DNA of 64,000 nucleotides from an uncultured beta proteobacterium (GTDB taxonomy: Bacteria > Pseudomonadota > Gammaproteobacteria > Burkholderiales > SG8-41), in assembly GCA_963734595.1 (NCBI GenBank), contig CAVTHV010000016.1, positions 84,519 through 148,518 on the forward strand, written 5' to 3'. Position numbers and translations under genes: made by a program. Below, one piece after another: positions 5,905 to 46,888 of this stretch (the stretch's first letter is position 1; each line of letters starts with the position of its first letter). The notes under the pieces were generated by a model that was given only the letters and a program-made list of their open reading frames with translations, was not told where the DNA came from and made no database searches.

Positions 5905-5918
5905 TTGACCTGTATCAA
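5905..5918. promoter_or_regulatory. FNR/Dnr-type box TTGACctgtATCAA
   Basis: Perfect TTGAY-N4-RTCAA palindrome in the divergent region between the kinase gene (-) and the c5-fusion gene (+). Confidence 0.5.
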
Positions 5919-6174
5919 ACAGCGGGGCGGGCAGTGCCCGCACGCGGTCCGGTTGCTCCCGTCATGGGCCCAATATGCCGCGCCGCCGGCTGCAAACGGC
6001 ACGGCGCCGCTTTTCCGGAGCCGCCCCGGCCGGATTCCGGGAACGTCAATGCGCCCGGGTCGGGCTGTGAGGTATAATATTTCGCATGTTTGCACGATTA
6101 TTCTGCCCTCCGGCGACCTCGTTCCCGAGGCGTTAATTCTGCCGATGCTTTTCGACCGCAGTTGACCTAAGAGG

Positions 6175-7257
6175 ATGCTGTCCATGCGCAACCCAGTACA
6201 CGCCGAAGGACATTCGTCCTTTGTCCGCACGCCGAAACGACTCCTGGCGGCCATCGTTCTTTGTTCTGCGGCAGCGCTCATGCCGCAACTGGCAGGCGCC
6301 CAGAGCGGCGATCGCAGCGGCAAAGAGGTGGTAGAGGCCGTTTGCGCCGCCTGTCATGCCACGGGCGCGAAGGGCTCGCCCAAAATCGGCGATCAGAAAG
6401 CGTGGGCCAAGCTCGCTGCGCGGGGCCTCAGCAGCCTCACCGCCAGCGCGCTCAAGGGTATCCGGAACATGCCGTCGCACGGCGGCAATCCGTCGCTCAC
6501 CGACAATGAAATCGAGCGCGCCATCACCTATATGGTCAATCAGTCAGGCGGCCACTGGACCGAGCCCATCAGCCGGACACCCGAAGAGCGCAAAGGCGAG
6601 CAGGTCGTGAAATCGCAATGCGCCAAGTGCCATCAGGCCGGCGTCGGCGGCGCGCCGAAGATCGGCGACCGGGCGGCCTGGATTCCCCGGCTCAAGCAAG
6701 GGATGGATTTCCTGGTGCGCTCGGCGATCAACGGGCACGGCGGCATGCCGCCGCGCGGCGGCATGGCCAATCTCACCGATGCCGAAGTCCAGTCCGCGAT
6801 CGTTTACATGGTGAATGGCGGCAGTGTTCCGGCAGCGAAGGCGGCTTCCGCTGCGCCGGCTGCGACAGCCGACCCCAATCATAAGGTCATCGGGGGAACG
6901 GAGATCTATCTGGGCGTCGTCTCGGCGGAATCGATGCGCGCACAGTATCCGAAGGGAAGCCCGGAAAGCGCGATGCACGGGGGCATCCCGAGCGGCAGGG
7001 GCTATTACCACGTGAACATCTCGCTGCTCGACAGCAAGACCAAAGCGGTGATCACGGATGCGCAGGTAGAGGCGAAAGTCGCGGAACCCACCGGCGGCGA
7101 AACGAAAAAGCTCGAGCTCGTGACGCTCAACAACACGAAGAGCTATGGCAACTATTTCCGCATGCCCAGCAAGAACCCCTACACGATTACGGTGCAAATC
7201 CAGAGGCCGGGCGCAGCGCGGCCGATCGTGGCCAGGTTCGATTACAGGCACTACTGA
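6175..7257 (+). CDS. Diheme cytochrome c5-type protein fused to a C-terminal ~130-aa domain of unknown function
   Basis: Signal peptide, then two c5-like units (CAACH..PKIGD..MPSHGG; CAKCH..PKIGD..MPPRGG). An Ala-rich linker leads to a domain with a beta-rich appearance (HGGIPSGRGYYHVNISLLD...ITVQIQRPG). Confidence 0.75.
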   Translation: MLSMRNPVHAEGHSSFVRTPKRLLAAIVLCSAAALMPQLAGAQSGDRSGKEVVEAVCAACHATGAKGSPKIGDQKAWAKLAARGLSSLTASALKGIRNMPSHGGNPSLTDNEIERAITYMVNQSGGHWTEPISRTPEERKGEQVVKSQCAKCHQAGVGGAPKIGDRAAWIPRLKQGMDFLVRSAINGHGGMPPRGGMANLTDAEVQSAIVYMVNGGSVPAAKAASAAPAATADPNHKVIGGTEIYLGVVSAESMRAQYPKGSPESAMHGGIPSGRGYYHVNISLLDSKTKAVITDAQVEAKVAEPTGGETKKLELVTLNNTKSYGNYFRMPSKNPYTITVQIQRPGAARPIVARFDYRHY

Positions 7258-7283
7258 CGGTCGACGCGCATTGCGTTCAAAAA

Positions 7284-7306
7284 AGCTGGCTGCGGCCGGC
7301 TTTTTT
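7284..7306 (+). terminator. Rho-independent terminator after the c5-fusion gene
   Basis: The 7-bp stem agctggc/gccggct has one G-U pair and loop tgcg. A T6 run follows and an A6 run precedes it, so it may act in both directions. Confidence 0.55.
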
Positions 7307-7607
7307 GTTGCCCGCCGCAAGGATGCGGCAGCGCAACGCGGCAACAATCCACTCCGTTGATCCGTGCCGGGGTATCAGTAAATTATCATTAAAAACAACG
7401 TATTACATACTCTGTTCGGATGCGTGGCGCAGCCGTCCTGATGTTAAACGGCGCGCGTCGGCACATCCCGCGCGCACGCTGCTTTCAACCCTCGCGAACA
7501 TGTGCATTTGCGCCCGCGTATTGCGGCCGGCGTTGCCGATCGAAATTGCGCGCCTTGCGCAATCCCTCGCTGCATGGGGCCACACCCGACCAGCCGTTCG
7601 CATCCGT

Positions 7608-7621
7608 TTGACGCAGATCAA
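7608..7621. promoter_or_regulatory. FNR/Dnr-type box TTGACgcagATCAA
   Basis: Perfect palindrome inside the 725-bp non-coding gap, ~370 bp upstream of the tetraheme cytochrome gene. Confidence 0.4.
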
Positions 7622-7982
7622 AGGCAACGGGAGGCGACAACGCTAGCATTGACACCGCATTGATCGGCAACCATTTCCGGGGGAAAGCATCGCAACCACG
7701 TTGGTAAAAACGATCGCATCATCGCAACACCGCGGGTCGATAATTTCAAAAGGGCTGTGCGTGGATTTCGCGCTCAAACCCCGCTCGGCAGTCGTTGCGC
7801 CGTCTGCTCTTTATCCGTGATCACCCGATTGTTTCCGCCTGGGGCGACGAGGCCGCATCGCCGCGCCCAAATCCGGTCCCAGCGCAGTGGGGATTCTGGC
7901 ATGCGCCGGCCCGGCGTCGCCGAATAGAGACGGACACCGGGCAGGTATAGAATGTCGGGGATTTCTGTAACAGTTTAGGGGA

Positions 7983-44619: not shown

Positions 44620-44692
44620 ATCACGCCACCGGCCGTCGCGCTGATAATCGAACCTGCGCCGCATTTCCCCGCTGCGCGAGCAGACTCAATTT

Positions 44693-45382
44693 ATGTCGGC
44701 CAAACCGATCAGGATCCAGGACTTTCTCACCAATCTTCCGCTGTTCCGGCAGCTCGGCAGCGGCGATATCGACCGCATCGCGGAAGGCGCAACCGAAATC
44801 GATGCGCCGCGCGGCAGCATCCTCTTCCGGCGCGGCGACCCGTGCAACGGTTTTCATATCGTGATCTACGGCCAGGTCAAGCTTGCGCTGGAGGCGCCGC
44901 ATGGCCATGAAAGGGTCGTCGAGCTCGCAGGCCCCGGGAACAGTTTCGGTGAAGCGATGATGTTCCTGGAAAAACCCTACATGGTGACCGCCGAAACCCT
45001 CGCCGATACCAAGCTCCTGCACGTCGCGAGGGAAATGGTGTTCGCCGAAGTCGACTGCGATCCGCGCTTCGCGCGCCGCATGATCGCCGGGTTGAGCCAT
45101 CGCCTGCATCATCTGATTTCCGACTTCGAAATGGTCACGCTGCATTCGGGCACGCAGCGCGTGATCGGCTACCTGCTGCGCGATGCCACCGAAGACAGCC
45201 GCATATCGGAGCTGCAGGTGACGCTGCCGGCAAAAAAAAGCATCATCGCCTCGCACCTGAACCTCACGCCGGAACATTTCTCGCGCATCCTGCATGAACT
45301 GAGCGTGGCGGGCCTGATCAAAGTGTCGGGCCGCAACGTGGTCATCCTCGATATCGGGCGGCTGCGCACCCACGGCGGCTGA
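44693..45382 (+). CDS. Crp/Fnr family regulator lacking the FNR Cys cluster (Dnr/NnrR-like)
   Basis: cNMP-like domain and an HTH with the FNR-type recognition residues (IASHLNLTPEHFSRILHEL). No N-terminal C-X2-C-X5-C cluster. Confidence 0.8.
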   Translation: MSAKPIRIQDFLTNLPLFRQLGSGDIDRIAEGATEIDAPRGSILFRRGDPCNGFHIVIYGQVKLALEAPHGHERVVELAGPGNSFGEAMMFLEKPYMVTAETLADTKLLHVAREMVFAEVDCDPRFARRMIAGLSHRLHHLISDFEMVTLHSGTQRVIGYLLRDATEDSRISELQVTLPAKKSIIASHLNLTPEHFSRILHELSVAGLIKVSGRNVVILDIGRLRTHGG

Positions 45383-45569
45383 AGCAGCTGCCGTTGTGCG
45401 AAGCGCGCGGGGCCCCTCTCCATGCGCACGTTATTCGTTGTTTTTATTGGATATATTTTAATGCCCGCGCAAGCGGACGAAACGCCTGATAAAGAGTAAT
45501 CTCGACCTGCAGTGGCGATGAAAACACAGCCAGTCGTGTGTGATTGAAACCAGACCGGGGGATGACATC

Positions 45570-46841
45570 ATGGCAAAGGTCGTAGTTCTTGGCGGCGGTA
45601 TCGGCGGCATGTCGGTCGCGTACGAATTGCGCTCCGTGCTGCCGCCGCAGCATCAGGTGACGCTGGTCAGCGCCGAAGATTATTTCCAGTTCGTGCCCTC
45701 CAATCCGTGGATCGCGGTCGGCTGGCGCAAGCGTGAAAACATCTGCCTGCCGATCGCGCCCCACGTCGAGCGCAAAAACATCAGCTTCATTGCCAAAGCC
45801 GCCACCAGCATCGCCGCGGCACAGAACCGCATCGCATTGGCCGACGGCGCGACCGTGGACTACGACTATCTGGTCATCGCCACCGGCCCGAAGCTCGCTT
45901 TCGACGAAATCCCCGGATCAGGCCCGCTCGGGCACACCCAGTCCATTTGCACCGTGGATCACGCCGAGCGCGCGTGGTCCGCGTACCAGGAATTCCTGCG
46001 AGAACCGGGCCCGGTCGTCATCGGCGCGATGGCGGGCGCGAGCTGCTTCGGCCCCGCCTACGAATTCGCGTTCATCGTGGACGCCGATCTGCGCCGGCGC
46101 AAATTGCGGCACAAAGTGCCCATGACGTTCGTCACGTCGGAGCCGTATATCGGTCATCTCGGTCTCGGCGGCGTCGGCGACTCCAAAGGCATGCTGGAAT
46201 CCGAATTTCGCGAGCATCACATCAAATGGGTCACCAATGGCAAGGTGACCAAGCTCGAAGCCGGCAAGATGTGGGTCGCCGAACACGGCGAAAAAGCCGA
46301 AGTGATCAAGGAGCACGAACTCGCGTTCCGCTTTTCCATGATGCTGCCCGCTTTCAAGGGCGTCGATGCCGTGGCCGGCGTCGAGGGCCTGTGCAACCCG
46401 CGCGGCTTCGTCATCGTCGACGAACACCAGCGCAGCAAAAAGTACCGGAATATCTTTGCCGCGGGCGTGTGCATCGCGATCCCGCCGGTGGAGCCCACCC
46501 CGGTCCCCACCGGCGCGCCCAAGACCGGTTACATGATCGAGTCGATGGTGGGCGCCATCGCGAGCAACATCAAGGCCGAGCTTGCCGGGCAACCCGCAGT
46601 GGCGGAGGCGACCTGGAACGCGGTCTGCCTTGCCGACATGGGGGACAACGGCATCGCGTTCGTCGCCCTGCCCCAGATTCCGCCGCGCAATTTCAACTGG
46701 ATGAAAAAGGGCAAATGGGTGCATTTTCTGAAAGTGGCGTTCGAAAAATATTTCCTGCGCAAGATGAAAAACGGCAATCCCGAGCCGATCTGGGAAAAGC
46801 ACCTGTTCAAGGCCCTCGGCATCACCCGCCTGACCAAATAG
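45570..46841 (+). CDS. sqr: Sulfide:quinone oxidoreductase (type I SQR-like flavoprotein)
   Basis: FAD-binding motif [10 protein letters not shown]. Conserved Cys contexts [12 protein letters not shown] and [10 protein letters not shown], plus KTGYM. Confidence 0.8.
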
Positions 46842-46844
46842 CGC

Positions 46845-46863
46845 GGCCGGCGGCACGCCGGCC
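46845..46863 (+). terminator. GC-rich hairpin after sqr (no U tract)
   Basis: 7-bp stem ggccggc/gccggcc with a 5-nt loop. Confidence 0.3.
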
Positions 46864-46874
46864 GGGCGGGTTCC

Positions 46875-46888
46875 TTGATGCATATCAA
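46875..46888. promoter_or_regulatory. FNR/Dnr-type box TTGATgcatATCAA
   Basis: Perfect consensus palindrome ~90 bp upstream of ubiU. Confidence 0.65.

Follow-up and report, generated by a model that had tools for sequence, protein, structure and literature searches.

Among the closest described systems to the locus analyzed here is the lxa locus of Burkholderia cenocepacia, a stretch of 50,722 bp with 50 genes that was defined by its strong and specific induction at low oxygen and in which 17 intergenic positions carry an Anr/FNR-like motif (Sass et al., 2013; PMC3721108). Anr-related regulators are encoded there alongside usp genes, a ribonucleotide reductase, two-component systems and transporters; survival without oxygen depends on the locus, which was interpreted as a survival regulon for oxygen depletion (PMC3721108). 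Our subject is a 64,000-nt stretch of DNA from an uncultured Burkholderiales bacterium (the window), in which 14 short palindromes lie between positions 5,905 and 46,888 (the island, ~41 kb). We propose, with a probability of roughly 0.87, that these palindromes are operators of FNR-family activators in class II-type promoters and that the island is a low-oxygen regulon. Like lxa, the island belongs to a Burkholderiales host, is a contiguous cluster on the ~50-kb scale, and has many intergenic FNR/Anr-like repeats at much the same density (one per 2.9 kb, 14 in 41 kb, compared with one per 3.0 kb). An earlier note on this DNA had called the set unusually dense, which is correct relative to ordinary genome sequence but has a precedent in lxa, with 17 motifs in 50.7 kb (PMC3721108). 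Several of the genes found in the island (ccoNOQP, hemN, nrdDG, ubiUV, many cytochromes c, archease-rtcB, polX and HPF) are, in contrast, not found by a text search of the lxa paper (PMC3721108). The two loci have in common an Anr-related CRP-family regulator, a two-component system, usp, ribonucleotide reductase, transporters and RNA-related functions, and the island shows lxa-type content in its regulators, usp, nrdDG with an additional reductase-like open reading frame (ORF), and a kinase/regulator pair. The likeness is one of gene content and motif density. It should be noted that the lxa motif was reported as TGA-N6-TCA only, and that lxa was defined by expression whereas the island is defined by sequence alone.

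In a class II FNR promoter the center of the box is at -41.5, where it replaces the -35 element, and the -10 hexamer starts ~22 nt past the edge of the box. The class II promoters of Escherichia coli FNR share with the island the consensus TTGAT-N4-ATCAA and a center near -41.5 in place of the -35 element, and the FNR proteins of the two share four cysteines and an ETISR helix. The Anr-to-Dnr cascade of Pseudomonas aeruginosa has its counterpart in a box before a dnr-type gene, although no nir or nor genes stand behind the island boxes. The FNR/Anr targets of E. coli and P. aeruginosa that recur in the island are hemN, the cbb3 oxidase, nrdDG, usp and hemerythrin; the island differs in that its boxes are nearly all perfect and are clustered at one locus rather than scattered. 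The motif, the class II layout, the FNR-to-dnr cascade, most of the respiratory and nucleotide targets, and clustering itself (lxa) are already known; what is new is that in several genomes FNR-type boxes are found repeatedly with archease-rtcB, polX, HPF and the genes that accompany them. Among betaproteobacteria, Herbaspirillum seropedicae has several Fnr-type regulators with similar boxes, and its Fnr1 and Fnr3 regulons, determined by chromatin immunoprecipitation sequencing and RNA sequencing, are dispersed (PMC5934665). Their targets resemble those of the island in the cbb3 oxidase, c-type cytochromes, usp genes and an fnr gene, while the text of that paper does not mention RtcB, polymerase X or a hibernation factor (PMC5934665).

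A scan of both strands of the window recovered exactly 13 perfect matches to TTGAYNNNNRTCAA (starts in Table 1); dinucleotide-preserving shuffles contain 0.11 on average and never more than 1. A 14th box, at 44606 (TTGATCCAGATCAG), has one mismatch. By its letters the motif is an FNR/Anr/Dnr/FixK-type box. The earlier note had listed these same 13 perfect palindromes and one imperfect one, had expected fewer than one perfect match per 64 kb, and had placed all sites between genes, and on each point our analysis agrees with it. Our gene map was drawn from ORF lists with codon statistics, Pfam and NCBIfam scans, and gene calls on two near-identical metagenome contigs of the same species, L001 and L128 (98.7% and 98.9% identical to the window; L numbers denote metagenome or genome loci). 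Non-coding DNA in this map amounts to 5,420 nt, or 8.5% of the window, and holds all 14 boxes; the comparison of intergenic with coding DNA that the earlier note had suggested, made within the window, gives no box in 58.6 kb of coding sequence. Box 28194 appears to overlap the tail of ORF 28188-29048, but this tail results from a frameshift: comparison with an intact homologue in L043 shows that the real AcrB C-terminus (...ANWKRHASRAP-stop) lies ~27 nt before the box. A position weight matrix built on the 14 boxes gives them 21.2-28.3 bits and the next position in the window 12.8, and because of this fall from 21.2 to 12.8 bits the set is sharply set apart from the background, with no tail of intermediate-scoring boxes in the 64 kb. 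The flanks carry no information in this matrix apart from the -10 hexamer, and no repeat of at least 22 nt in the window contains a box.

Within the boxes, positions 7-8 (for example, 5911-5912 and 23462-23463) are pyrimidine-purine (CA, TA or TG) in 14 of 14, compared with 25% expected and with 58% among 85 independent perfect boxes of other loci, and C or G predominates at positions 6 and 9. This gives TTGAY-S-Y-R-S-RTCAA as the preferred consensus, and the central step suggests a requirement for a flexible center. When one mismatch was allowed, the scan gave 44606 and eight further matches (chance level ~3.9 matches of all kinds), five of the eight in coding DNA and none with promoter geometry. 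None of the eight was kept as an operator: the match at 23982, before usp, leaves only ~21 nt to the ATG, less than a class II promoter requires, those at 17774 and 35652 have no supporting geometry, and the remainder are coding and near chance numbers.

The geometry of the flanks connects the boxes with promoters. Both flanks of every box were scored with a sigma-70 -10 matrix (threshold of at least 5 bits, gap of 21-23 nt), and a -10-like hexamer lies at this gap in 12 of the 14 boxes, compared with a rate of 8% at intergenic control positions. The strand on which a hexamer lies is in every case that of the neighboring gene downstream. Good hexamers flank boxes 23456 and 38261 on either side, box 35569 has a weaker second one, and all three lie between divergent genes. 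The view that most boxes are class II activator sites, with the transcription starts that we predict, is thus supported. Box 7608 is conserved in L001, as are boxes generally in the same-species contigs (97-99% identical); the archease box in L128 has a T-to-C change at degenerate position 5 and still reads TTGAY. At box 16243 the plus-strand hexamer, on the fnr side, is weak, and in L001 it stands at a spacing that is different by 3 nt.

Table 1. Boxes, predicted -10 hexamers, putative targets and regulator genes of the island (window coordinates; strand of a box is the direction in which it points or faces; gap is the distance from box edge to hexamer)
Feature	Position	Strand	Sequence	-10 hexamer; gap (nt)	Putative targets or remarks
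Box	5905..5918	-	TTGACCTGTATCAA	TATTCT 5877-5882; 22	HAMP/HisKA sensor kinase 5775->4177, then sigma-54 response regulator ->2711 (-)
Box	7608..7621	+	TTGACGCAGATCAA	TAGCAT 7644-7649; 22	Tri-haem cytochrome c 7983-9221; Aq_1264-type membrane protein 9391-10221 (+)
Box	10289..10302	+	TTGATCCACGTCAA	TACATT 10325-10330; 22	Multihaem cytochrome 10552-12550 (frameshifted; intact 655 aa in L001); cytochrome c 12680-13840 (+)
Box	16243..16256	-	TTGACCTAGGTCAA	GATATT 16216-16221; 21	hemN-DsbD_2 ~16197->13906 (-); box lies between divergent hemN and fnr
Box	17870..17883	-	TTGACGTAGGTCAA	TAATAT 17843-17848; 21	Small ORF and mono-haem cytochrome c 17522->17184 (-)
Box	23456..23469	both	TTGATCTACATCAA	TAGTAT 23428-23433 (-); 22. 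TACATT 23491-23496 (+); 21	ccoNOQP-fixGH 23441/23393->17898 (-); orf 23550-23960, then usp 24014-24460 (+)
Box	28194..28207	-	TTGATTCAGGTCAA	TAAATT 28166-28171; 22	Four-gene string (-): TmcC/HmcE-type membrane anchor 28091->27396; DsrK-like Fe-S/CCG protein 27762->26031 (frameshifted); YgaP-like gene; trxC 25756->25325
Box	33546..33559	-	TTGATCCAGATCAA	TATCAT 33518-33523; 22	CBS-pair protein 33519/33498->33004; HPF 32989->32627; HlyD/AcrB RND efflux 32620->~28233 (-)
Box	35569..35582	-	TTGATCTAGGTCAA	TAACAT 35542-35547; 21	Archease-rtcB 35495->33595 (-; frameshifted in assembly)
Second hexamer of box 35569	35605-35610	+		TGTACT	Weaker; faces orf 35652-35894
Box	38261..38274	both	TTGACCCAGATCAA	TATTAT 38234-38239 (-); 21. 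TTTACT 38297-38302 (+); 22	dksA-like 38160->37765 and polX 37755->36025 (-); bifunctional kinase-like/AAA_33 gene 38349-39955 (+; frameshifted here, one 532-aa gene in L128)
Box	41495..41508	-	TTGACGTACATCAA	TAGTAT 41467-41472; 22	Hemerythrin 41288->40755, then ribonucleotide-reductase-C-terminus-like ORF 40584->39952 (-)
Box	41528..41541	+	TTGATGCACATCAA		nrdD 41643-43892 (frameshifted); nrdG 43882-44589 (+); 33 bp from box 41495; no class II -10
Box, one mismatch	44606..44619	+	TTGATCCAGATCAG	GATAAT 44643-44648; 23	dnr-like gene
Box	46875..46888	+	TTGATGCATATCAA	CATAGT/TAGTAA 46911-46918; 22-24	ubiU 46974-47987; ubiV 47989-48882; then HlyIII, LplA-like gene, SCP2/UbiT-like 51111-51629 (+)
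fnr	16420..17172	+			250 aa, recognition helix ETISR
dnr-like CRP/FNR-family regulator	44693..45382	+			229 aa, helix EHFSR, no N-terminal Cys cluster

Two regulators of the appropriate type are encoded within the island, as had been noticed before. The product of the gene at 16420 has Cys19-X2-Cys22-X5-Cys28 and Cys121, which we take to correspond to C20, C23, C29 and C122 of E. coli FNR; it scores 267.5 bits with the NCBIfam Fnr model NF008365 (cutoff 228) and aligns with the Aliivibrio fischeri FNR structure 5cvr at E=1.6e-64. On these four cysteines, the model score and the structure alignment, we regard it as a bona fide FNR, an oxygen sensor of the [4Fe-4S] type. The protein encoded at 44693, which had been described as Dnr-like and devoid of a Cys cluster, has P. 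aeruginosa DNR (3dkw) as its best match in the PDB (E=1.4e-35; FixK2, 1.8e-7) and conserves the His residues aligned to H139 and H187 of DNR, presumably the haem ligands. No NCBIfam equivalog model was passed by this protein (the FtrB model gave 105 with a cutoff of 211), and nir, nor and nos genes are absent from the window, where narGHJI stands alone at 56105-62744; "Dnr-like" is therefore the right level of claim. With their common E--SR helix, the FNR and the Dnr-like protein should recognize the same half-site.

We now put forward a mechanism in which the boxes would be bound by dimeric CRP/FNR-family activators with an E--SR helix, namely the local FNR and the Dnr-like protein. At 12-13 of the boxes, the box would take the place of the -35 element with its center ~41.5 bp upstream of the predicted transcription start. 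As oxygen falls, FNR would dimerize, bind the box and recruit sigma-70 RNA polymerase, so that ~17 transcription units in the 41 kb would be induced at the same time. By our own count, ~17 of the 22 inferred transcription units between 2.7 and 52 kb carry a box, in line with the statement of the earlier note that boxes precede almost every unit. The induced functions would include a set for microoxic and anoxic respiration (the cbb3 oxidase, c-type cytochromes, O2-independent hemN and ubiUV), nrdDG for the anaerobic supply of deoxynucleoside triphosphates, an O2-binding hemerythrin, and the thiol/redox proteins of the DsrMK-like and trxC string. A maintenance set would be induced with them, consisting of the archease-RtcB RNA ligase, DksA-like/PolX, CBS/HPF ribosome hibernation, RND efflux and the kinase-like/AAA_33 protein. 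The dnr-like gene and the sensor kinase/sigma-54 activator pair would act as second-tier regulators. Binding, the response to oxygen or nitric oxide (NO), and the assignment of regulators to boxes are what we infer here, and on this reading 14 near-consensus class II FNR-family promoters would show which functions are coupled to oxygen limitation in this uncultured Burkholderiales lineage.

The identities of the targets are consistent with such a mechanism. Pfam and NCBIfam scans confirm the classic targets that had been named (hemN, ccoN, nrdD, ubiU and the dnr-like gene) as well as the less expected boxed units (archease-rtcB, dksA-like/polX, CBS-HPF-efflux and DsrMK-like/trxC), and add nrdG and ubiV beside nrdD and ubiU (UbiU, NF047963, 570 bits). 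Many of the targets, namely hemN, ccoN, nrdDG (with tandem sites), ubiUV, dnr, usp and hemerythrin, correspond to FNR/Anr targets known by experiment in other organisms (PMC10425943; see also PMC10470549). The cytochrome genes that had been listed as targets stand in part. Four cytochrome c units do lie behind boxes, but box 5905 has its -10 hexamer on the minus strand and therefore points at the sensor kinase/sigma-54 regulator operon. A separate perfect TATAAT (6071-6076), ~150 nt past the box, serves as the predicted -10 of the cytochrome gene at 6175.

Several points weigh against the proposed operator function or limit it. The -41.5 placement rests on -10 hexamers that are themselves predicted; box 41528 has no such hexamer at class II spacing, and that of box 46875 is modest (4.0 bits). 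Some predicted starts lie near the first in-frame start codons (cbs, ccoN), which implies either very short leaders or a revision of the gene starts. Boxes of Anr/FNR and of Dnr are indistinguishable by sequence, and those of the island are not assignable on this basis to FNR or to the Dnr-like protein. The control for motif density is limited to the 23 kb of the window outside the island, which has no site and contains ctaA, a second hemerythrin gene and narGHJI.

Because the boxes themselves do not name their regulator, we considered that they might be used mainly by the Dnr-like protein, as an NO-responsive, haem-based regulator, or by another Cys-less member of the FNR family, with FNR at the top acting on dnr and the island serving as a regulon for NO or denitrification stress. 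The shared E--SR helix, the likeness of Anr and Dnr boxes, and the adjoining narGHJI are compatible with this, a box of its own precedes the dnr-like gene, which matches the P. aeruginosa Anr-to-Dnr cascade, and nucleic-acid repair genes would suit a response to nitrosative damage. However, no box in the window has nir, nor or nos genes behind it, hemN, ccoN, nrdDG and ubiUV are typical direct targets of FNR/Anr, and TTGAT and TTGAC half-sites do not split the targets into two functional groups, so that we consider this arrangement unlikely. We would give rather less credence to a CRP/FNR-family regulator encoded elsewhere in the genome (FixK-, NarR- or NnrR-type, or an Fnr paralogue) that has the two local regulators among its targets. 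Burkholderiales often have several Fnr paralogues with overlapping motifs, Herbaspirillum having three Fnr proteins (PMC5934665) and B. cenocepacia three Anr-like candidates (PMC3721108), and L043 and L116 each carry an Fnr paralogue, 44-51% identical to the FNR of the window, beside similar boxes. Yet the island itself encodes two regulators with the right specificity, both adjoining a box, and nothing in the data requires a third.

Palindromes in intergenic DNA may also be non-regulatory, whether by chance, as dispersed repeats (repetitive extragenic palindromes, REP, or miniature inverted-repeat transposable elements, MITE), or as small terminator hairpins, and in being palindromic and intergenic the boxes do look like REP elements and terminators. 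Here the evidence leaves almost no room: the chance expectation is 0.11, neither flanking similarity nor a longer repeat includes the boxes, hairpins with 5-bp arms and a 4-nt loop lack the strength of a terminator and are not followed by a T-run, a -10 hexamer stands at a fixed spacing, and the same box is found upstream of orthologous genes in distant genomes. Operators of FNR-family activators are the reading with which we continue. Computation shows where the boxes lie and that they are intergenic, how far the -10 hexamers are from them, which regulators and targets are encoded, and that box-gene pairs recur in other genomes.

The part of the island with the fewest precedents is the maintenance set, and its associations recur in relatives. 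In E. coli and Salmonella, rtcBA is an operon under RtcR and sigma-54 control, and this is the known bacterial paradigm for rtcB. Both that operon, which is stress-inducible, and the island operon encode an RtcB RNA ligase, but in the island archease replaces rtcA, RtcR, RtcA and a sigma-54 promoter are absent, and an FNR-type box precedes archease-rtcB. Sigma-54 promoters for rtcB or for the cytochrome gene at 6175 were considered and rejected: TGGCAC-N5-TTGC matches number 60 where 84 are expected, and none is suitably placed. Among 80 metagenome loci with an RtcB 66-86% identical to that of the window, 49 have enough upstream sequence, and in ~12 of the 49, about a quarter, a box lies just upstream of archease, at -1380 to -1800 from the matched segment. 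Eight loci have a box immediately past the rtcB stop codon, and the next gene, where identified, is cbs (L048, L057; likewise in the window) or hpf (L100). In L043, a metagenome-assembled genome (MAG) of the Burkholderiales with proteins 74-93% identical, seven boxes in 11.4 kb are interspersed with genes homologous to the AAA_33, RND, usp, fnr-paralogue and ccoN genes. Overall, the genes that recur around boxes in related loci are hpf, usp, cbs, polX, the AAA_33 gene and fnr paralogues.

A similar survey of polX covered 35 full-length loci from species-representative genomes and looked for a TTGA-N6-TCAA box at most 900 nt upstream. Five of the 14 loci from Proteobacteria have such a box (those of Herminiimonas, an Oxalobacteraceae MAG, two Trinickia and a proteobacterial MAG); the 21 loci of other phyla, among them Nitrospira, Verrucomicrobia and Planctomycetes, have none. 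The PolX of the window (36025-37755, minus strand) is 61-65% identical to PolX of Nitrospira, Verrucomicrobia and Planctomycetes and 64-71% identical to that of other Proteobacteria, and since it is nearly as close to other phyla as to its own, horizontal movement of polX is suggested; FNR-type boxes were found at proteobacterial copies only (loci L009-L041).

From these associations we are inclined, with some reserve, to the view that a group of Burkholderiales and related uncultured Proteobacteria has a conserved maintenance module (archease-RtcB RNA ligase, PolX, DksA-like protein, HPF, CBS protein, USP and the kinase-like/AAA_33 protein) under FNR-family control, responsive to oxygen or NO, in place of RtcR/sigma-54 or SOS-type control. 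If so, the repair of RNA and DNA ends and ribosome hibernation would be part of a programmed hypoxia response, with functional parallels in the DosR regulon of mycobacteria and the lxa regulon of Burkholderia, and RtcB of these bacteria would be deployed specifically when oxygen is scarce. The link suggests a place for nucleic-acid repair and ribosome hibernation in a hypoxic persistence program, which extends the picture given by lxa. In the searchable literature we found no paper on FNR-type control of archease-rtcB or polX; the RtcB-FNR prediction is easily tested and overturns no current view.

Boxes 41495 and 41528 form a tandem or back-to-back pair like that of E. coli nrdDG, whose promoter has tandem FNR sites at -33.5 and -64.5 (PMC10425943, citing Roca et al.). 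In both cases nrdD is directly preceded by two full boxes with a separation of roughly three turns of the helix (31 bp in E. coli, 33 bp in the island). The island differs in that the distal box, 41495, also has a well-placed -10 on the opposite strand facing the hemerythrin gene, and for this reason the two boxes may be back-to-back divergent promoters. Downstream of hemerythrin, the ORF at 39952-40584 (minus strand, 210 aa) matches the C-terminal third of the ribonucleotide reductase barrel alone (Pfam positions 316-522), and no N-terminal reductase partner is found nearby. Stand-alone homologues lie beside hpf-polX in L039 and L043, and the ORF may be a split-reductase subunit (NrdJb-like) rather than a remnant. 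In the operon behind box 46875, the SCP2-domain protein at 51111-51629 (plus strand) is a probable UbiT in the same gene string as ubiU and ubiV, with HlyIII and an LplA-like/DUF116 fusion gene between ubiV and it, and the box may drive the full set for O2-independent ubiquinone hydroxylation. The kinase-like/AAA_33 gene (38349-39955), which shares box 38261 with dksA-polX, appears as two overlapping ORFs that are a single gene of ~532 aa (L128, 529-2127; L070, 6503-8098). Its product has an N-terminal domain without a Pfam match and a C-terminal AAA_33/zeta-toxin-like P-loop kinase domain, and in L070 the gene comes immediately after archease-rtcB and is itself followed by a DHH/DHHA1 protein, a setting that hints at involvement in the processing of nucleic-acid ends.

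Unusually long leaders are predicted behind boxes 7608 (~330 nt, 7650-7982) and 10289 (~210 nt, 10340-10551). At gathering thresholds, Rfam gives no match to such leaders (7650-7980, for example), and no ORF is called in them on a related contig; a small ORF or RNA element there is possible. Beyond the right end of the island, narGHJI (56105-62744, minus strand; narG split by a frameshift) has no FNR-type box within the window; the ORF upstream of it (62827-64000, minus strand) runs off the window, and the promoter would fall past its right edge. The second hemerythrin-domain gene (55296-55745, minus strand) is unboxed and lies outside the island in a string with a peptidyl-prolyl isomerase (PPIase) and SirB. 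A mobile origin of the island was considered and set aside, there being no tRNA genes and no compositional break.

Compared with L001 and L128, the window has many extra single bases outside homopolymers within 7469-38937 (36 insertions and 3 deletions in 20.8 kb; 5 and 1 in 5 kb), for example at 11144, 11423, 11445, 11893, 12498, 14961, 16083, 26693, 38815 and 38937. They break the frames of the multihaem cytochrome (10552-12550), hemN, DsrK-like, AcrB, archease/rtcB, AAA_33 and nrdD genes, and probably also those of the sensor kinase and narG. Because the same genes are intact in other contigs, the extra bases are most likely assembly errors and not signs of pseudogenes. The window also has ~200 nt at 40410-40611 that L128 lacks, and a further ~184 nt at 35820-36004, between orf 35652-35894 and the polX stop codon, that are absent from the same 98-99% identical contig; the latter difference is a strain-level indel next to the divergent promoter region.

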